Assembly: GCF_003334355.1 (NCBI RefSeq)
Contig: NZ_QOWP01000056.1
From: Escherichia coli
GTDB lineage: Bacteria; Pseudomonadota; Gammaproteobacteria; Enterobacterales; Enterobacteriaceae
Reading direction: 5' to 3' (one strand)
DNA length: 10,236 nt
Below are positions 1 to 9,142 of the stretch, piece by piece. Made by a program: the position numbers and the translations under genes. Below the pieces are notes generated by a model, which was not told the DNA's origin, did no database searches, and worked only from the letters and a program-made list of their open reading frames with translations. The stretch's first letter is position 1, and every line of letters starts with the position of its first letter.

Positions 1-158
1 TCGAAACGTACTCTCAACAGTTCGCTTAGGCATGGAAGTTTTGCGGCATTCTGGCTACACAATAACAAGGGAAGACTTACTCGTGGCTGCAACCCTACTA
101 GCTCAAAATTTATTCACACATGGTTACGCTTTGGGGAAATTATGAGGGGATCTCTCAG
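1..158 (+). mobile_element. IS10 (Tn10-type, IS4 family), terminal segment ending in its inside-end inverted repeat. The element continues past the left window edge.
   Basis: The reverse complement of 1..158 begins CTGAGAGATCCCCTCATAATTTCCCCAAAGCGTAACC, which I recognise as the IS10 inside end. The + strand carries the transposase 3' end. Confidence 0.85.
2..145 (+). CDS. IS10 transposase, C-terminal 47 codons (5' part outside the window)
   Basis: Frame 2 is open from the window edge and reads [47 protein letters not shown], with TGA at 143..145, 13 nt before the IS terminus. It is absent from the ORF track because the window truncates it. Confidence 0.8.
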
Positions 159-267
159 CACCCTGCGTGAGTTTCACGAGAAGCTGCGTGAACTGCTGAC
201 GACGCTGAATCTGAAGCTGGAACCGGCGGATGATTTTCGTGATGAACCGGTGAAGTTAACGGCGTGA
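159..267 (+). pseudogene. crl: crl 3' fragment (sigma-S-binding factor Crl) disrupted by IS10
   Basis: From 160 the frame reads [35 protein letters not shown] (TGA 265..267), the recalled C-terminus of Crl. The rest of the gene is displaced by the IS10 junction at 158/159. Confidence 0.85.
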
Positions 268-275
268 GTGAAATG

Positions 276-298
276 TGCCGGATGTATCACATCCGGCA
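276..298. terminator. Hairpin between the convergent crl and phoE genes (candidate bidirectional terminator)
   Basis: Perfect 10-bp inverted repeat TGCCGGATGT (276-285) / ACATCCGGCA (289-298) with a 3-nt loop, between the two stop codons. The flanking T-runs are weak. Confidence 0.5.
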
Positions 299-305
299 AT
301 ATCCA

Positions 306-1361
306 TTAAAACTGATAGGTCATGCCAACCGCGACAATATCATCATTATTAATATTCAATTTGTTATCGCTATCCAGTTGGTTGATTTTATAATCAACAA
401 ACGCTGACATATTTTTGTTGAAATAATACGTAGCCCCGACATCGATATAATTGACCAGATCTTCATCACCGATACCTTCAATATCTTTCCCTTTCGATAA
501 GACATAACCCAGCGATGGACGCAGACCAAAGTCAAACTGGTATTGAGCGACCGCTTCAAAGTTCTGTGTCTTATTGGCAAAGCCGCCAGTTATTGGCGTC
601 ATTTTGCGTGTTTCAGAATAAAAAGTTGCCAGATAAATATTATTGGCATCGTATTTCAGACCTGTAGCCCATGCTTCTGCACGCTTGCCTGTGCCACGGC
701 TTTGCAGGTTCTGCTCGTTGGTGCGATCTGAGTTGGTATAGGCCCCACTAATGGCGAAATCGCTGCCGCCAAAGTCATATGTCAATGACGTGCCGAAGCC
801 ATCGCCGTTTTGCTTTTTAACGTCGCGGTTTTCGTTTTTCCCTTGATATTGCAGGGTTAAGTTCAGGCCATCGATAACGCCGAAGAAGTCGGTGTTCCGA
901 TACGTCGCCAGACCGCTGGCGCGTTTGGTCATAAAGTTGTCGGTCTGCGCCGAGGAGTCGCCACCAAATTCCGGGAACATATCGGTCCAGGCTTCCACGT
1001 CATACAACGCGCCCAGGTTACGACCATAATCGAAAGAACCCAAATCTTTATATTTCAACCCGGCAAAAGCGAGACGCGTTTTTTGCTGTGCAGTATCACT
1101 CTCTGCTTTATTACCGGCAAACTCTGCTTCCCAACGACCATAACCAGTCAGTTGATCGTTAATTTGTGTTTCGCCTTTAAAACCAAAACGGATATAACTC
1201 TGGTCGCCATCTTTACTGTCGTTATCACTCATATAATGCATGGCTTTAACTTTGCCATAGACATCCAGTTTATTACCGTCTTTGTTATATATTTCTGCGG
1301 CCTGTACGGATGCAGATGCCACAATGCCCATCACCACTAATGCCAGAGTGCTCTTTTTCAT
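306..1361 (-). CDS. phoE: Outer-membrane phosphoporin PhoE
   Basis: ORF track 306..1367. It has the signal peptide [21 protein letters not shown], a porin body and the C-terminal ...VGMTYQF. I place the start at the second ATG (MKKST...), as in the known 351-aa protein. Confidence 0.97.
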
Positions 1362-1441
1362 TTTCATTCCTGATTTTAATTAACGCGCGAATATTCAGCG
1401 GGAGAGTCCCGTTGAAAACAGGAAAGTTTTTAACCTAAGAT

Positions 1442-1460
1442 TGTTAAAGATATATTACAG
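1442..1460 (-). promoter_or_regulatory. Pho box (PhoB-binding site) of the phoE promoter
   Basis: The minus strand reads CTGTAATATATCTTTAACA, close to the Pho-box consensus CTGTCATA(A/T)A(T/A)CTGTCA(C/T). It lies about 80 nt upstream of the phoE start. Confidence 0.7.
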
Positions 1461-1497
1461 ATTAATAATATTCTTAAAATGTGGTAATTTAGTAAAT

Positions 1498-1516
1498 CTG
1501 TAATAAAAGCGTAAAC
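1498..1516 (+). promoter_or_regulatory. Second Pho-box-like sequence, inverted relative to phoE
   Basis: The + strand reads CTGTAATAAAAGCGTAAAC. It resembles a Pho box but points the opposite way. An upstream inverted element is reported for phoE (recalled). Confidence 0.4.
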
Positions 1517-1648
1517 AACTGCCGCTAGGCTTGCTGATCCCGCGCAACAAAACGCCATGCTTTGCTCGCAGATAGTTGGCAACCGACGACAGTCCTGCTA
1601 AAACGTTCGTTTGATATCATTTTTCCTAAAATTGAATGGCAGAGAATC

Positions 1649-2752
1649 ATGAGTGACAGCCAGACGCTGGTGGTAAAACTCGGCACCAGTGTGCTAACAG
1701 GCGGATCGCGCCGTCTGAACCGTGCCCATATCGTTGAACTTGTTCGCCAGTGCGCGCAGTTACATGCCGCCGGGCATCGGATTGTTATTGTGACGTCGGG
1801 CGCGATCGCCGCCGGACGTGAGCACCTGGGTTACCCGGAACTGCCAGCGACTATCGCCTCGAAACAACTGCTGGCGGCGGTAGGGCAGAGTCGACTGATT
1901 CAACTGTGGGAACAGCTGTTTTCGATTTATGGCATTCACGTCGGGCAAATGCTGCTGACCCGTGCTGATATGGAAGACCGAGAACGCTTCCTGAACGCCC
2001 GCGACACCCTGCGTGCGTTGCTCGATAACAATATCGTTCCGGTAATCAATGAGAACGATGCTGTCGCTACGGCAGAGATTAAGGTCGGCGATAACGATAA
2101 CCTTTCTGCGCTGGCGGCGATTCTGGCGGGTGCCGATAAACTGTTGCTGCTGACCGATCAAAAAGGTTTGTATACCGCTGATCCGCGCAGCAATCCGCAG
2201 GCAGAACTGATTAAAGATGTTTACGGCATTGATGACGCACTGCGCGCGATTGCCGGTGACAGCGTTTCAGGCCTCGGAACTGGCGGCATGAGTACCAAAT
2301 TGCAGGCCGCTGACGTGGCTTGCCGTGCGGGTATCGACACCATTATTGCCGCGGGCAGCAAGCCGGGCGTTATTGGTGATGTGATGGAAGGCATTTCCGT
2401 CGGTACGCTGTTCCATGCCCAGGCGACTCCGCTTGAAAACCGTAAACGCTGGATTTTCGGTGCGCCGCCTGCGGGGGAAATCACGGTAGATGAAGGGGCA
2501 ACTGCCGCCATTCTGGAACGCGGCAGCTCCCTGTTGCCGAAAGGCATTAAAAGCGTGACTGGCAACTTCTCGCGTGGTGAAGTCATCCGCATTTGCAACC
2601 TCGAAGGCCGCGATATCGCCCACGGTGTCAGTCGTTACAACAGCGATGCATTACGCCGTATTGCCGGACACCACTCGCAAGAAATTGATGCAATACTGGG
2701 ATATGAATACGGCCCGGTTGCCGTTCACCGTGATGACATGATTACCCGTTAA
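1649..2752 (+). CDS. proB: Glutamate 5-kinase ProB
   Basis: ORF track 1562..2752. The known protein starts [16 protein letters not shown] at the ATG at 1649. It has an amino-acid kinase fold plus a C-terminal PUA region. The N-terminal extension in the track is unlikely. Confidence 0.97.
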
Positions 2753-2763
2753 GGAGCAGGCTG

Positions 2764-4017
2764 ATGCTGGAACAAATGGGCATTGCCGCGAAGCAAGCCT
2801 CGTATAAATTAGCGCAACTCTCCAGCCGCGAAAAAAATCGCGTACTGGAAAAAATAGCCGATGAACTGGAAGCACAAAGCGAAATCATCCTCAACGCTAA
2901 CGCGCAGGATGTTGCTGACGCGCGTGCCAACGGCCTTAGCGAAGCGATGCTTGACCGTCTGGCACTGACGCCCGCACGGCTGAAAGGCATTGCCGACGAT
3001 GTGCGCCAGGTGTGTAACCTCGCCGATCCGGTGGGGCAGGTAATCGATGGCGGCGTACTGGACAGCGGCCTGCGTCTTGAGCGTCGTCGCGTACCGCTGG
3101 GGGTTATTGGCGTGATTTATGAAGCGCGCCCGAACGTGACGGTTGATGTCGCTTCGCTGTGCCTGAAAACCGGTAATGCGGTGATCCTGCGCGGTGGCAA
3201 AGAAACGTGTCGCACTAACGCTGCAACGGTGGCGGTGATTCAGGACGCCCTGAAATCCTGCGGCTTACCGGCGGGTGCCGTGCAGGCGATTGATAATCCT
3301 GACCGTGCGCTGGTCAGTGAAATGCTGCGTATGGATAAATACATCGACATGCTGATCCCGCGTGGTGGCGCTGGTTTGCATAAACTGTGCCGTGAACAGT
3401 CGACAATCCCGGTGATCACAGGTGGTATAGGCGTATGCCATATTTACGTTGATGAAAGTGTAGAGATCGCTGAAGCATTAAAAGTGATCGTCAACGCGAA
3501 AACTCAGCGTCCGAGCACATGTAATACGGTTGAAACGTTGCTGGTGAATAAAAACATCGCCGATAGCTTCCTGCCCGCATTAAGCAAACAAATGGCGGAA
3601 AGCGGCGTGACATTACACGCAGATGCAGCTGCACTGGCGCAGTTGCAGGCAGGCCCTGCGAAGGTGGTTGCTGTTAAAGCCGAAGAGTATGACGATGAGT
3701 TTCTGTCATTAGATTTGAACGTCAAAATCGTCAGCGATCTTGACGATGCCATCGCCCATATTCGTGAACACGGCACACAACACTCCGATGCGATCCTGAC
3801 CCGCGATATGCGCAACGCCCAGCGTTTTGTTAACGAAGTGGATTCGTCCGCTGTTTACGTTAACGCCTCTACGCGTTTTACCGACGGCGGCCAGTTTGGT
3901 CTGGGTGCGGAAGTGGCGGTAAGCACACAAAAACTCCACGCGCGTGGCCCAATGGGGCTGGAAGCACTGACCACTTACAAGTGGATCGGCATTGGTGATT
4001 ACACCATTCGTGCGTAA
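2764..4017 (+). CDS. proA: Gamma-glutamyl phosphate reductase ProA
   Basis: 417-aa ORF with GGAG 8 nt upstream, 11 nt after the proB stop (proBA operon). The sequence [21 protein letters not shown]... is recognised as ProA. Confidence 0.98.
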
Positions 4018-4131: not shown

Positions 4132-4207
4132 GCCGATATAGCTCAGTTGGTAGAGCAGCGCATTCGTAATGCGAAGGTCGTAGGTTCGACTCCTATTATC
4201 GGCACCA
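4132..4207 (+). tRNA. thrW: tRNA-Thr (anticodon CGU)
   Basis: 76 nt, GCCGATATAGCTCAGTTGGTAGAGCAGCGCATTCGTAATGCGAAGGTCGTAGGTTCGACTCCTATTATCGGCACCA. It has a cloverleaf, a CGT anticodon, a GGTTCGA T-loop and an encoded CCA. Confidence 0.97.
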
Positions 4208-4372: not shown

Positions 4373-5587
4373 GTGAAACTCAATGCCCGTCAAATAGACA
4401 CAGCCAAGCCAAAAGAGAAGGCTTACAAGCTGGCCGATGGTGGCGGTTTGTATCTCTTGGTAAAACCTAATGGAGGTAAATACTGGCGACTTAAATATCG
4501 TGTAGCTGGTAAAGAGAAGCTATTGGCACTAGGTGTGTATCCTGAGGTTACTCTAGCCGATGCTCGGGCAAAACGTGAAGATGCGAAAAGAGGTATCGCT
4601 GGTGGTATCGATCCGATGGAAGCGAAACGAGAGGAAAAGATTGCCCGGGAAACGCAGTTAAACAACACCTTCAAAGATATTGCCCTTGAGTGGCACAGCA
4701 GCAAATTAAAAAAATGGTCTGCTGGTTATGCTTCAGACATCCTCGAAGCCTTCAACAAAGATGTGTTCCCTTACATTGGCAAAAAACCAATCGCCGAAAT
4801 CAAACCACTTGAACTTCTGAATGTGCTGCGGCGCATTGAGGGGCGCGGTGCTACAGAAAAAGCCAAAAAAGTGAGGCAGCGGTGCGGGGAAGTTTTCCGC
4901 TATGCAATAGTCACTGGTCGCGCAGAGTATAACCCTGCACCAGACCTTACTAGCGCGATGCAAGGCCATGAATCTAATCATTACCCTTTCCTTACAGCCA
5001 AAGAATTACCTGATTTTTTCAAGGCATTGTCCAGTTACTCAGGAAGCGCATTGGTTGTTATGGCGGCTCGTCTACTGATTATCACAGGCTTGCGGACTGG
5101 CGAACTACGTGGCGCATTATGGGATGAAATTGATTTCAACAAGGCTCTCTGGGAGATACCCGCTTCACGTATGAAAATGCGGCGGCCTCATATTGTGCCA
5201 TTGTCTGAGCAGGCTCTTTCGCTTATTGGGAAGATTAGAGAAATAACAGGCAATTACCCTCTTATGTTTCCCGGGCGCAATGATCCAAGGAAAACAATGA
5301 GTGAGGCCAGCATAAACCAAGTGTTTAAGCGCATTGGCTACGCTGGACGTGTAACTGGTCATGGGTTCCGGCACACTATGAGTACGATTTTGCATGAGCA
5401 GGGCTATAACACCGCGTGGATAGAAACGCAGCTCGCTCACGTTGATAAGAACTCAATTCGTGGCACATACAACCATGCGCAATATCTGGATGGAAGGCGG
5501 GAGATGCTTCAATGGTATGCCGACTATATGGATTCTCTCGAGCATGGCGGAAATGTGGTGCATATGGTGTTTGAAAAACACGCATGA
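4373..5587 (+). CDS. P4-family tyrosine integrase (tRNA-associated)
   Basis: 404 aa, GTG start with GGAGG at 4359-4363. The N-terminus MKLNARQIDTAKPKEKAYKLADGGGLYLLVKPNGGKYWRLKYR is typical of P4-type integrases. Catalytic contexts are GLRTGELR, HGFRHT and RGTYNHAQY. It lies directly beside thrW. Confidence 0.93.
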   Translation: MKLNARQIDTAKPKEKAYKLADGGGLYLLVKPNGGKYWRLKYRVAGKEKLLALGVYPEVTLADARAKREDAKRGIAGGIDPMEAKREEKIARETQLNNTFKDIALEWHSSKLKKWSAGYASDILEAFNKDVFPYIGKKPIAEIKPLELLNVLRRIEGRGATEKAKKVRQRCGEVFRYAIVTGRAEYNPAPDLTSAMQGHESNHYPFLTAKELPDFFKALSSYSGSALVVMAARLLIITGLRTGELRGALWDEIDFNKALWEIPASRMKMRRPHIVPLSEQALSLIGKIREITGNYPLMFPGRNDPRKTMSEASINQVFKRIGYAGRVTGHGFRHTMSTILHEQGYNTAWIETQLAHVDKNSIRGTYNHAQYLDGRREMLQWYADYMDSLEHGGNVVHMVFEKHA

Positions 5588-6238: not shown

Positions 6239-6442
6239 ATGGCTAATTACAATTCATTAATTCGTCTCTCTGAAGTTCAAAGGCGAACTGGTTATAGCAA
6301 AGCATGGATTTATCGTCTTATTAGTCAGGGGAGGTTCCCTAAACAGGTAAAAATTGGAAGTCGGGCAATTGCTTTTGTTGAGTCTGAAATAGATGAATGG
6401 ATTGAGAAGTGTATATTAGAATCTAGAGACGAGGTGGCCTGA
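6239..6442 (+). CDS. alpA: AlpA/Vis-family phage transcriptional regulator / excision factor (MerR-like HTH)
   Basis: 67 aa. LIRLSEVQRRTGYSKAWIYRLISQGRFPKQVKIGSRAIAFVESEIDEWI is the AlpA-family pattern. AGGA lies 10 nt upstream of the ATG. It is the first gene of a co-directional operon. Confidence 0.9.
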   Translation: MANYNSLIRLSEVQRRTGYSKAWIYRLISQGRFPKQVKIGSRAIAFVESEIDEWIEKCILESRDEVA

Positions 6443-6885: not shown

Positions 6886-7719
6886 ATGAACATCGAAAAA
6901 AGCAGATTAATTTCTGAGGCCGCCCCTCATCTGAACGCCTCTCTGGGCACAATTAACGGTAATGAATTTGCCGCAATTGTCCCGGTTATTCCTGGTCATA
7001 TCGGTGGGCGTGAAACCAATATTGTTAGCGCAAAAGCGTTACACAAAGCGTTGGGCGTGGGAAAAGACTTCTCTACATGGATCACTGATCGCATCTCTGA
7101 ATATGACTTCACCATTGGGCACGATTACTCAGTCCATAAAACAATTTCCCCAAATTTGGGGAAAAGCCCGAATGGCGCGGCTTACAGCAAGATTAAGCAG
7201 TCTGGCAGACCCGGCAAAGACTATCTGTTAAGTGTCGGAATGGCGAAAGAACTGGCAATGATCGAACGCAATGATCAGGGTCGCGCTATCCGCCGTTATT
7301 TCATCCAGTGCGAGGAAGAATTACAGCGTAGCGTGCCTGAAATCGCCGCCCGCTATCGTCGCCAGCTAAAAGCCCGTATCAGTGCCGCAAACAACTTTAA
7401 GCCAATGTGCGATGCGCTGAATATGGCCCGTGCCGAGATGGGTAAAACGACGCAGCAACACCACTACACAAACGAGAGCAATATGATTTCTCGTATCGTT
7501 CTTGGTGGGCTAACTGCTAAGCAGTGGGCGCGGATAAATGGCTATTCTGGCGAACCTCGCGACCATATGAACGCAGAACAGCTTGAGCACCTCTCATATC
7601 TCGAAAGCACCAATATCACGTTAATTGATATGGGCATGGAATATGAGCAGCGCAAAGGAGAACTCACCCGCCTGTCGCAACGCTGGCTCGCCAAGCGTCT
7701 GGAGGTGGTCAATGTCTAA
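6886..7719 (+). CDS. Phage antirepressor-like protein (AntA/AntB-type N-terminal domain)
   Basis: 277 aa. SAKALHKALGVGKDFSTWITDRISEYDF...GRPGKDYLLSVGMAKELAMIERNDQGRAIRRYFIQCEEE matches the AntA-domain pattern. GGAG lies upstream. Confidence 0.85.
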   Translation: MNIEKSRLISEAAPHLNASLGTINGNEFAAIVPVIPGHIGGRETNIVSAKALHKALGVGKDFSTWITDRISEYDFTIGHDYSVHKTISPNLGKSPNGAAYSKIKQSGRPGKDYLLSVGMAKELAMIERNDQGRAIRRYFIQCEEELQRSVPEIAARYRRQLKARISAANNFKPMCDALNMARAEMGKTTQQHHYTNESNMISRIVLGGLTAKQWARINGYSGEPRDHMNAEQLEHLSYLESTNITLIDMGMEYEQRKGELTRLSQRWLAKRLEVVNV

Positions 7720-7894
7720 GCCAACAGGAACACCACAACCACAAAAACGCTACAAAGATGCCCACGGAGCACTCGTTACTGTCGAAAGCGTGTCTCACAA
7801 CCGAGTGACGTTTTATCGCGACGGGTATCAATCGCCATGCGTACAACCGCTGGCGCGTTTCATGAAGGAGTTCGCGGAGGTTAACAAATGCTAA
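7712..7894 (+). CDS. Small DUF4222-like protein (60 aa)
   Basis: Internal ATG at 7712 of track ORF 7625..7894, preceded by GGAGGTGG (7701-7708) and overlapping the upstream stop (ATGTCTAA). YKDAHGALVTVESVSHNRVTFYRDGYQSPC resembles DUF4222 proteins (recalled). Confidence 0.7.
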   Translation: MSKPTGTPQPQKRYKDAHGALVTVESVSHNRVTFYRDGYQSPCVQPLARFMKEFAEVNKC

Positions 7895-8955
7895 CCGTCC
7901 AGAAGAAGACATTTTCACTGGCTGGTATGTCGCCAAAATCCAGCAATATGACGGCAAAGTCAGGCATTAATACAGCAGATACAAGCAAAGTTTATCATTT
8001 GCTGGTGGTCGGAACGGATGCCTTAACCATATCAGAAATCTCGGGCGATGATATTAGCATTGAGAAGGTCAGCGGCTGCGCCAGAAAATTTCTGGTCGTA
8101 GATGATGTCTTCCGCTCGTGTAGTGACTCCACAAAAACATTCGTCCACGCGCGTGACGTTAACGAAATGAGCGCGATGTACTGTGCATCTGGTGCTTCCA
8201 ATAGCGAGTTTTCGGAGTCCATAAAAAAGAGCTTGCCGTTATGCGGCAACACGGTTTATGGTTATAAGGCACCTCATAAAACGGGTGCCGGGATTGGCGT
8301 CCTGGTAAATCGAATGGCGACATATGACGCGCCGAGCGTCTTTTTTTATGTCGTAGGTCTGACTCACCCATTTTTTGGGCGTTGGTGTATAATCCAGCGC
8401 CTTTGTCAATCAATGGTGGCTCAGGCAGGGGCTTCTTCGGAAGCGCCGGTATCCATTCGAGCCGGTTACGCCAACCCTGTCTGGGCTACCACCAGCGAAA
8501 TTGGCGTTTCCGGTGGTAGCGTTACATGCTATCGAATGGAGGCTGCCACATGCTGGCTACTACCCCTACCCAAAAACCGCAATTTATCTGGATTATCGCC
8601 GCAGTTCGCCGCGATTGCCCGACAATTACCGCCAAAATTCATCATATTGCTGCCGAGTCTGAACGCGATGCTCGCCGTTCTCTGGTGCGCGATCACGTCT
8701 GCTTTTTTGCTGGTCGTATCCGCATGGAGGTGGCACATGATTAAAACCTACGATGTGCATATGGATCCCCTCGAACGCACAAGCCAGATCATCACACTGA
8801 CAGAAGTGATTAACGACATTCTGGTGAGCAACTCTCCCTCACGAGACGAAAGACTGAAGGCGTTACTCGCGATATTGGATCTCGCCGTTCGTGACGTTCA
8901 TTTCCTGCTGGAAGGTGGCGAAATGCCAGGAAAAACGGGGGCAACCAATGAATAA
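7888..8955 (+). CDS. Long open frame (355 codons). The 5' start is well supported, but the frame is probably a composite rather than one protein.
   Basis: The ATG at 7888 has GGAGG (7876-7880) at 7-nt spacing and overlaps the DUF4222 stop (ATGCTAA). The N-terminal ~120 aa look protein-like ([36 protein letters not shown], wHTH-like). The frame then crosses a terminator, a TATAAT box, a structured RNA region and the icd-like gene without meeting a stop. The true 3' end is undetermined. Confidence 0.3.
8326..8347 (+). terminator. Intrinsic-terminator-like hairpin with a T7 run
   Basis: GACGC (8326-8330), GCCGA loop, GCGTC (8336-8340), then TTTTTTT (8341-8347). Confidence 0.5.
8388..8393 (+). 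promoter_or_regulatory. Perfect -10 hexamer TATAAT upstream of the structured RNA region
   Basis: TATAAT at 8388-8393 with TG just upstream. I found no good -35, so the promoter call is weak. Confidence 0.3.
8400..8525 (+). ncRNA. Candidate c4 (P1/P7) / CI (P4)-like antisense immunity RNA; boundaries approximate
   Basis: Three hairpins. The first is GCTTC-TTCG-GAAGC (8431-8444, UUCG tetraloop). The second has a CCGG stem (8446-8449 / 8462-8465) presenting the loop ATCCATTCGA (8451-8460). The third is GCTACCACC (8485-8493) / GGTGGTAGC (8512-8520). The second loop is complementary to sites at 8309-8317 and 8531-8540. An icd-like gene follows, as in P1 immI. Confidence 0.55.
8550..8744 (+). CDS. 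Icd-like protein (host cell division inhibitor family of P1/P4-like elements)
   Basis: Internal ATG at 8550 of track ORF 8526..8744, with GGAGG (8538-8542) 7 nt upstream. [21 protein letters not shown]...[23 protein letters not shown] matches my recollection of Icd-like proteins. Confidence 0.8.
   Translation: MLATTPTQKPQFIWIIAAVRRDCPTITAKIHHIAAESERDARRSLVRDHVCFFAGRIRMEVAHD
8737..8955 (+). CDS. Small hypothetical protein (72 aa), probably an independent start within the long open frame
   Basis: The ATG at 8737 has GGAGG (8726-8730) 6 nt upstream and overlaps the icd-like 3' end by 8 nt. The sequence is helical. Confidence 0.55.
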   Translation: MIKTYDVHMDPLERTSQIITLTEVINDILVSNSPSRDERLKALLAILDLAVRDVHFLLEGGEMPGKTGATNE

Positions 8956-9142
8956 CTCAATTAATACCCCTCGCCTTACGTCCGCACTTCAATTAATCGA
9001 GCAAGCAGCGGCTGTCCTGGTTGCTGTCAGTCTTTCGGCTGAAGAAATGGACGCTGCTGATGTCGTGGATGCGATTAAAGCGTGCTCATCTTTGGTTAAC
9101 GATGCCCGTGCCGAGCTGGTAATTCTTGGGGGTGAAAAATGA
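8948..9142 (+). CDS. Small hypothetical protein (64 aa)
   Basis: Internal ATG at 8948 of track ORF 8891..9142, overlapping the upstream stop (ATGAATAA). Alanine-rich and helical. Confidence 0.65.
   Translation: MNNSINTPRLTSALQLIEQAAAVLVAVSLSAEEMDAADVVDAIKACSSLVNDARAELVILGGEK

Follow-up and report, generated by a model that had tools for sequence, protein, structure and literature searches.

A C4/CI-family antisense RNA gene with two recognition elements in an Escherichia coli island at tRNA-Thr

We analyzed a 10,236-nucleotide (nt) stretch of Escherichia coli DNA (contig NZ_QOWP01000056.1; hereafter, the window), in which the chromosomal genes phoE, proB, proA, and tRNA-Thr are followed, in this order, by an integrated island. 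The subject of this analysis is an antisense RNA gene of the C4/CI family, which lies in the island between an isrK/seqA-like leader RNA and a short gene related to icd of P1 and kil of P4. A long open reading frame (ORF), labeled as an "ash family protein" and here called the eta-like ORF, runs across the whole arrangement. The RNA is a copy of the known immunity RNA termed C4 in phages P1 and P7 and CI in the satellite phage P4, a small antisense RNA whose pairing with the ribosome-binding site of the leading gene in a replication operon silences a prophage-like island. The system is already known and can be recognized with a curated model, and the copy is merely unannotated as an RNA, RefSeq listing no RNA gene at the C4 region. 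We regard positions 8233-8744, which are homologous to the PLE-seqA-cI-seqC-kil/eta region of P4, as very probably an immunity region belonging to a P4-like satellite or to a phage-inducible chromosomal island (PICI) integrated at tRNA-Thr. The features are collected in Table 1.

The C4/CI element and its flanking targets

The Rfam covariance model for the C4 antisense RNA (RF01695) matched the + strand at 8409-8496 over its full length (model positions 1-87) with 79.5 bits (E = 1e-14), which is almost twice the gathering score of 45. The isrK model (RF01394) matched the same strand at 8269-8346 with 67.1 bits (gathering score, 50), and the two matches are 63 nt apart. The cI region of P4 matches the same two models in the same order (74.9 bits for C4 and 60.8 bits for isrK), and it shows 75% DNA identity to 8316-8571 of the window (query positions 57-312 of 8260-8760). 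By every sequence-level criterion, the element belongs to the C4/CI family, with P4 as its closest member. This agrees with the original prediction, made from the letters of the DNA, of an antisense RNA resembling P1 c4 and P4 CI, for which a search with the C4 covariance model had been suggested as a check.

Next, we analyzed the predicted fold. The 88-nt C4 segment had a minimum free energy of -47.2 kcal/mol, corresponding to z = -5.8 compared with shuffled sequences. A long closing stem encloses two hairpins and a single-stranded junction. The two hairpins, one with a UUCG tetraloop and one with a CCGG stem, had been predicted earlier and were found at the same coordinates; the loop of the second exposes AUCCAUUCGA at 8451-8460. 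The predicted mature RNA is 79 nt long (8415-8493), with its ends set by inference from the annotated 77-nt c4 of P1. The stem begins at the pair G8415-C8490, and the 3' end, A8491-C-C-A8494, looks like a tRNA acceptor end. Judged by shape, the stem with the A-C-C-A end would be a plausible substrate of RNase P, and PMC5499578 lists P4 CI and P1/P7 C4 among the RNase P substrates.

The design comprises two recognition elements, a' in the junction and b' in the loop of hairpin 2, with each site present in three copies, rather than a single loop-target pair. The loop sequence TCCATTCGA (8452-8460) is complementary over its full length to TCGAATGGA (8532-8540), as had been noticed in the original prediction together with the GGAGG Shine-Dalgarno sequence at 8538-8542, which this target overlaps, and the icd-like ATG at 8550. 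When TCGAATGGA was searched in the 10.2-kb window on both strands with at most one mismatch, only three matches were obtained: the loop, the ribosome-binding site, and 8310-8318, the last being the upstream target b1. The order a1-b1, c4, a2-b2, and icd is that annotated in P1 (NC_005856), which bears out the P1- and P4-like geometry of loop and target that had been proposed.

Because cofolding cannot model loop-loop contacts, a duplex scan was employed, in which the exposed 25 nt (loop plus junction) were compared with every 40-nt tile of the window. The best region on the + strand was 8501-8540 (-31.3 kcal/mol), which holds a2 and b2, and the second was 8281-8330 (-27.2 kcal/mol), which holds a1 and b1; the tile mean was -12.3 kcal/mol (standard deviation, 3.9). 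The next-best partner on this strand, 2541-2585 (-25.8 kcal/mol), lies at the end of the proB-like ORF and is most likely due to chance.

Table 1. Coordinates of the features in the window, with the immunity region first and the neighboring island genes last
Feature	Position	Strand	Remarks
C4/CI antisense RNA gene	8409-8496	+	Rfam RF01695
Closing stem	8414-8430 / 8475-8491	+	17 bp; encloses both hairpins and the single-stranded junction
Hairpin 1	8431-8444	+	GCUUC-UUCG-GAAGC; 5 bp
Hairpin 2	8445-8466 (arms 8445-8449 / 8462-8466)	+	Stem GCCGG/CCGGU, 5 bp; 12-nt loop
Single-stranded junction	8467-8474	+	
b', loop element	8452-8460	+	UCCAUUCGA
a', junction element	8468-8474	+	ACGCCAA
a1, upstream target	8294-8300	+	UUGGCGU; exact complement of a'
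b1, upstream target	8310-8318 (match 8310-8317)	+	UCGAAUGGC; first 8 of 9 nt complementary to b'
a2, downstream seqC-like target	8501-8507	+	UUGGCGU; exact complement of a'
b2, downstream target	8532-8540	+	UCGAAUGGA; overlaps Shine-Dalgarno GGAGG 8538-8542
Alternative helix	8485-8493 : 8512-8520	+	a2 in its 18-nt loop
Putative PLE-like promoter	8233-8262	+	-35 TTGCCG 8233-8238, 18-nt spacer, -10 TATGGT 8257-8262
isrK / P4 seqA-like leader RNA	8269-8347	+	Rfam RF01394
Leader hairpin 1	8269-8288	+	
Leader hairpin 2	8289-8304	+	a1 in loop; followed by single-stranded b1
Intrinsic terminator	Stem 8326-8340, U-run 8341-8347	+	Run of seven U; from terminator scan
Spacer hairpin	8378-8401	+	GGCGUUGG / CCAGCGCC; between isrK terminator and C4
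icd-like / P4 kil-like gene	8550-8744	+	64 amino acids; first gene under RNA control; PGAP CDS WP_001304881.1
Candidate rut region	8520-8700	+	C-rich, G-poor; start of icd-like gene
Next small ORF	8737-8955	+	72 amino acids; 8-nt overlaps with the icd stop and with the following ORF (8948)
eta-like ORF	7888-8955	+	355 codons; RefSeq "ash family protein" WP_032348625.1
tRNA-Thr (thrW)	4132-4207		Anticodon CGT
Tyrosine integrase gene	4373-5587		Follows thrW
AlpA-family regulator gene	6239-6442		
AntA-family protein gene	6886-7719		
DUF4222 protein gene	7712-7894		

Co-variation among relatives and an alternative helix

Relatives were collected by scanning viral contigs with a pattern that describes the invariant core; this gave 120 loci. 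The sets used were 67 distinct loci for own-locus matches, alignments of 97 sequences and of 60 relatives, and 78 distinct P4-like regions. All 13 loci that were checked with Rfam scored 70-87 bits for C4, and most of them had isrK or c4-a1b1 upstream. As observed, the loop had an exact 9-nt complement within its own locus, at the fixed b2 position before the Shine-Dalgarno sequence, in 56 of the 67 loci. Exact own-locus matches were similarly frequent for b1 (8 nt, 58/67), a2 (7 nt, 61/67), and a1 (7 nt, 65/67), whereas cross-locus controls, in which a loop was compared with the flanks of another locus, showed medians of 4-5 nt (4 nt for b2).

The fold and both intermolecular helices were 94.6% paired in the 97 relatives, with 618 double-sided changes compared with 165 in shuffles, and controls with slid partners were at most 48% paired. 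In the same set, the closing stem was 95.9% paired with 12 of its 17 pairs compensatory (95.9-99.9% paired with 7-12 compensatory pairs across both alignments), and hairpin 1 was 100% paired with four of five pairs compensatory. Hairpin 2 was invariant because it had been part of the search pattern. Pairing of b' with b2 reached 91.5%, six of the nine pairs being compensatory, and that of a' with a2 reached 87.8% (6/7 compensatory). For the upstream targets, scored in the 60 relatives, the values were 100% for a1:a' (6/7) and 99.4% for b1:b' (6/8). Loop and targets thus co-vary, and did so for both elements, which is clearly the opposite of the absence of co-variation that the original prediction had named as grounds for its rejection.

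The 78 P4-like regions contained 13 types of b' and eight types of a', which occurred in 32 combinations, and all four targets were exact in 69 of these regions. The a' and b' elements reassort among loci, and a change in either one is shared by its three copies.

The original prediction had also listed a 9-bp stem downstream of the two hairpins. This stem is present at 8485-8493 / 8512-8520 and co-varies, but it competes with the C4 fold instead of forming part of it. GCUACCACC (8485-8493) and GGUGGUAGC (8512-8520) are exact reverse complements of each other. The first segment consists of the outer part of the closing stem's 3' arm and the two C residues that follow, and the second nearly repeats the 5' arm of C4 at a distance of exactly 100 nt downstream. 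Because the helix and the outer 7 bp of the closing stem draw on the same 3' arm, the helix excludes the C4 fold. This clash had been overlooked before, as had the closing stem itself, the a' element, and the upstream target copies within an isrK/seqA-like RNA that has a terminator. Among the 97 relatives, the alternative helix was 94.5% paired with eight of nine pairs compensatory (slid controls, at most 66%), and it was 98.7% paired in the second alignment. P4 has the same co-varying helix (GCUAUCGCC/GGCGAUAGC), and P1 has it too, with one mismatch. The helix is real and selected.

The predicted probability of this helix was 0.02 when 8409-8525 was folded in isolation and 0.999 when the fold took in the whole leader (8269-8525), whose lowest-energy fold pairs a1/b1 with a'/b' in cis. 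Within the predicted whole-leader fold, only a1:a', b1:b', and the 8485-8493:8512-8520 stem were well supported; the remaining helices that set the cis-paired conformer apart were 65-76% paired across the relatives. We do not claim the whole alternative leader conformer, in which the "anti-arm" 8357-8368:8415-8426 and the helix 8318-8324:8347-8353 were just 74-76% paired. A small hairpin at 8516-8520:8528-8532 (81% paired, barely above shuffles) was also set aside.

We tentatively offer one joint reading of these two sets of observations, to which we give appreciably less than an even chance. The alternative helix might act as a switch in the unprocessed leader, between maturation to the immunity RNA (cloverleaf) and a cis-paired seqA:seqB state, and the a and b parts, which reassort freely, might form a modular two-part immunity code that gives satellites combinatorial mutual exclusion, some elements carrying three isrK-C4 modules in a row. 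The alternative helix, found from P1 to P4-like elements, and the reassorting two-part specificity may both be undescribed.

The leader, the icd/kil-like gene, and the overlapping eta-like frame

The putative promoter, TTGCCG-N18-TATGGT, aligns position for position with TTGCCT-N18-TATAGT of PLE, the constitutive early promoter of P4, whose -10 element is annotated in X02534. The isrK model begins 7 nt past the -10 element in both the window and P4, and the predicted start is near 8269. The helices of the leader were 87-99.7% paired with compensatory changes in the 60 relatives. The equation of isrK with P4 seqA and of C4 with the P4 CI RNA has already been made (PMC3632133; PMC4825925). Between the isrK terminator and C4, the spacer hairpin was 87.7% paired, and five of its eight pairs were compensatory. 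A perfect TATAAT (8388-8393) lies in its loop and was considered as an internal promoter; it is confined to the sub-lineage of the window and has no -35 element. Additionally, a dyad, TTGCCGTTATGCGGCAA (8233-8249), overlaps the PLE-like -35 element, and the terminator scan scored it as a minus-strand terminator. A weaker dyad occurs in the same place in P4. The dyad may be an operator.

The icd-like protein matched the NCBIfam family phage_ICD_like (3.7e-20) and showed 44% identity to P4 Kil and 28% to P1 Icd. In the icd frame, third codon positions were about twice as variable among the 78 relatives as first and second ones (1.17 vs 0.66-0.67 bits). The GC skew falls to -0.40 at 8560-8639. 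In its base composition, this C-rich stretch would suit the loading of Rho on an untranslated gene, and it may be the counterpart of timm, the Rho-dependent terminator of P4. The icd-like gene is followed by an ORF (8737-8955) that has no family match and no annotation in strain M10; its ribosome-binding region (GGAGGTGGCACATG) differs little from the one before icd (GGAGGCTGCCACATG). This ORF begins a chain of coupled small ORFs that overlap start to stop by 4-8 nt. In identical E. coli loci, this chain leads to a TOPRIM/DUF927 primase, which was found downstream in loci L001 and L124. The ORFs after icd (8737-8955, 8948-9142, and on) gave no match to Ant, KilA, or Bro.

The eta-like ORF spans the putative promoter, the seqA-like RNA, the C4 RNA, the seqC-like targets, the whole icd-like gene, which is in another frame, and the next small ORF, which is in frame. 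Its ATG at 7888 is preceded by GGAGG plus 7 nt and overlaps the stop of the DUF4222 gene. The Ash-family annotation mentioned in the original prediction was found: PGAP, the NCBI annotation pipeline, labels a pseudogene at 8314-8523 as "ash family" in one strain and the whole of 7888-8955 as a 355-amino-acid protein in many others. The matches to Pfam Phage_ASH (6e-22) and to a PHROG "transcriptional repressor" (5e-28) cover only amino acids 106-233, which correspond to the promoter, seqA, CI, and seqC part. Codon-position variability was flat in the Ash frame across the isrK region, spacer, C4, and seqC (8269-8549) of the 78 relatives, and the N-terminal 105 amino acids are non-homologous between Ash "family members". 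Therefore, the conservation of the Ash region comes from the RNA, which is what the original prediction had suspected. The suspicion does not cover the frame itself, however, which is kept open in 77 of the 78 relatives and matches P4 eta. The chance of such an open frame was approximately 0.02 when the leader was shuffled and 0.04 when icd was resampled synonymously; counts of stop triplets by frame at variable sites were confounded by indels.

The long frame is in frame with icd/kil in 64 of the 78 relatives, as in P4, and it is shifted in 10, including the window. In the 10 shifted lineages, it is still open past icd, and in the window it ends at 8955, at the start of the next gene. P4 eta has 199 codons and starts at a TGATG overlap with vis. 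By analogy, we take ORF 7888-8955 to be the counterpart of P4 eta. In PMC10111431, P4 eta is described as housing the constitutive promoter, seqA, and CI, with Kil being a truncated form of it; the same paper describes eta as translated only from the upstream late promoter, and its translation as preventing termination.

Proposed mechanism, known systems, and competing explanations

We propose that the region acts as a P4-type immunity region, and we assign this explanation a probability of roughly 0.85. A constitutive promoter at approximately 8233-8262 would start an untranslated leader near 8269. Some transcripts would end at the terminator (8326-8347), giving an isrK/seqA-like RNA of ~78 nt, and others would read through C4. 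The C4 part would fold into the long acceptor-like stem with two hairpins and be released as a stable ~79-nt RNA (8415-8493), with RNase P making the 5' cut. This mature RNA would pair in trans, through the b' loop and the a' junction, with a2 and b2 on new transcripts. Because b2 covers the Shine-Dalgarno sequence, the icd/kil-like gene would then stay untranslated. The untranslated C-rich RNA would be exposed to Rho-dependent termination, so that the coupled small ORFs and the primase would remain off, which would constitute prophage immunity. The a' and b' elements also match a1 and b1 in the leader, so the seqA-like RNA may serve as a second target or as a competitor (sponge). Transcripts from the upstream operon would be translated across the region in the eta-like frame, which would strip off the antisense RNA, block Rho, and bypass immunity on induction. 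The analysis itself showed the membership in the family, the fold, the complementarity at two sites in three copies with its co-variation, the homology to P4, the conserved open frame, and the coding status of icd; the promoter, the cut by RNase P, pairing in trans, termination by Rho, and the bypass are inferred from the biology of P1/P7 and P4.

The window resembles P4 in the position of the putative promoter, the predicted 79-nt RNA, the two-site a/b targets flanking the RNA gene, the kil-like first gene, the long ORF across the region, and the primase operon downstream, named alpha in P4. The recognition elements are different: P4 has CCUGUGAA as b' and UUCUCAC as a', whereas the window has UCCAUUCGA and ACGCCAA. 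Therefore, P4 and the window element should be heteroimmune. Terminator and RNA are separated by 63 nt in the window and by 108 nt in P4. In contrast to P4 eta, which is in frame with kil, the eta-like ORF of the window is out of frame with kil/icd, runs into the next gene, and is coupled to the DUF4222 gene; in P4, the coupling is directly to vis, the alpA homologue. The genes that separate kil from the primase are unrelated in the two.

The immI region of P1 and P7 shares the Rfam family, the a1-b1 / c4 / a2-b2 layout, a b2 site on the icd Shine-Dalgarno sequence, and an Icd-family first gene, and its acceptor-like stem is consistent with RNase P processing. Unlike P1 immI, the window has no antirepressor (ant1/ant2) after icd, its AntA-family gene being upstream and outside the controlled unit, and it has no C1 operator; control in P1 is described as translational. 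The IsrK locus of Salmonella Gifsy-1 is also alike in having an isrK-family RNA with a terminator, partial read-through to a C4-like processed RNA of ~80 nt, and mutual complementarity (PMC4825925). There, however, the downstream gene is an antirepressor (the anrP locus) in a lambdoid prophage with IsrK as a trans activator, whereas the window has an icd-like gene and the replication genes of a satellite-type island. Rfam C4 and isrK matches in Gram-negative PICIs, as well as the eta/kil/CI logic, are already described in PMC10111431. The system has been worked out in P1, P7, P4, and Gifsy-1, and the copy in the window leaves its understanding unchanged.

Several points weigh against the P4-type explanation. 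The conserved alternative helix has no place in a simple immunity model. As the eta-like frame is not in frame with kil/icd, the nested-gene logic of P4 is not transferable unchanged. A sigma-70 consensus scan of 8100-8800 returned no promoter, so the promoter call comes from the P4 alignment alone, and the dependence on Rho is suggested by base composition alone. The Rfam c4-a1b1 model (RF03163) scored only 17.9 bits at the leader against a threshold of 46.7. That motif likewise has two hairpins with a1 in the second loop, upstream of the C4 RNA; the isrK model also takes in b1 and the terminator and suits the lineage of the window better. Cofolding of the mature RNA with the seqC-like region or the isrK-like RNA predicted no intermolecular pairing (free-energy difference, ddG, ~0), a result that is uninformative rather than negative because nested cofolding cannot model loop-loop contacts. 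Lastly, the RNA, its ends, and its processing at this locus are likewise deduced from the known systems.

Alternatively, the RNA could act as in P1 only, by blocking the icd-like ribosome-binding site, with downstream genes silenced by translational coupling and without Rho termination. The overlap of b2 with the Shine-Dalgarno sequence is exactly that annotated for P1 b2 and icd, and the 4-8-nt overlaps of the downstream ORFs mean that coupling alone could relay the block. Nevertheless, we hold this to be rather unlikely, since the DNA is homologous to P4 (75%) with an operon that ends in a primase as in P4, while P1 DNA matches the isrK-like part alone (query positions 3-93); the C-rich, G-poor stretch past the start codon and the action of the same elements through termination in P4, as given in PMC4825925 and PMC10111431, also argue for the P4 type. 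Somewhat less doubtful, although still tentative, is a role like that of Gifsy-1 IsrK, in which the isrK-like RNA (8269-8347) would regulate: its a1/b1 would titrate the immunity RNA or remodel the read-through transcript, switching downstream translation on. The isrK-like RNA would thus be an anti-immunity RNA and not a passive target, which is compatible with the P4-type explanation rather than exclusive of it. This RNA scores above the model threshold and has its own terminator, its a1:a' and b1:b' pairs are 99-100% paired with compensatory changes, and the lowest-energy leader fold joins them in cis; moreover, Gifsy-1 IsrK in trans activates downstream translation by pairing with the orf45/STnc1160 region, a C4 homologue (PMC4825925). 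However, the conformer-specific helices other than a:a' and b:b' are weakly conserved, and seqA of P4 is described in PMC3632133 as a target needed to establish immunity and not as an activator.

That the conserved element is an Ash-family transcriptional repressor with incidental RNA features appears highly improbable. The Phage_ASH and PHROG matches, hundreds of "ash family protein" entries, and the open frame in 77/78 relatives would fit a protein, but the third-position excess that is clear in the overlapping icd frame is absent in the Ash frame over isrK, spacer, C4, and seqC, sequence changes occur as compensatory pairs within RNA helices, and the members have unrelated N-terminal parts. 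Also, the P4 immunity factor is an RNA according to PMC4825925, PMC3632133, and PMC5499578. Nor do we consider it likely that the module is an inactive relic of a decaying island. Many such islands are degenerate, and strain 97-3250 carries an IS600 element and a truncated regulator gene directly upstream. Against this, each of the four targets is an exact complement, neither the fold nor the icd ORF is disrupted, and strain M10 has its integrase, alpA-like regulator gene, and primase all intact. Furthermore, the 601 bases around the C4 element are present in 1168 of 5426 complete E. coli genomes, with 135 records at least 99% identical. In the window, thrW and the integrase gene form the left end of the island.

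For annotation, many E. coli genomes carry the "ash family protein" label, which hides a putative promoter, an isrK-like RNA, a C4 RNA, an icd-like gene, and the 8737-8955 ORF. The conserved cores of Phage_ASH and of several PHROG "transcriptional repressor" families are a translated RNA region, and inferences of a repressor are misled by it. As a' and b' can be read directly from the DNA, they offer a simple immunity typing of P4-like satellites and Gram-negative PICIs. Only the alternative helix, the reassorting two-part specificity, and a tandem arrangement of triple modules in one relative are points possibly worth further work.

This last arrangement was observed in IMGVR_UViG_2825488710_000003 (L054, 1195-2052), where three C4 copies (1195-1282, 1578-1668, and 1965-2052) stand in tandem with isrK copies between them (1480-1559 and 1867-1946), as a stacked immunity array. 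Another relative (L038) has two C4 copies ~8 kb apart. In a further one (L062, 8890-9053), the C4 copy has unrelated sequence in place of the 3' arm after GGGC and no downstream targets; this copy is truncated or recombined.

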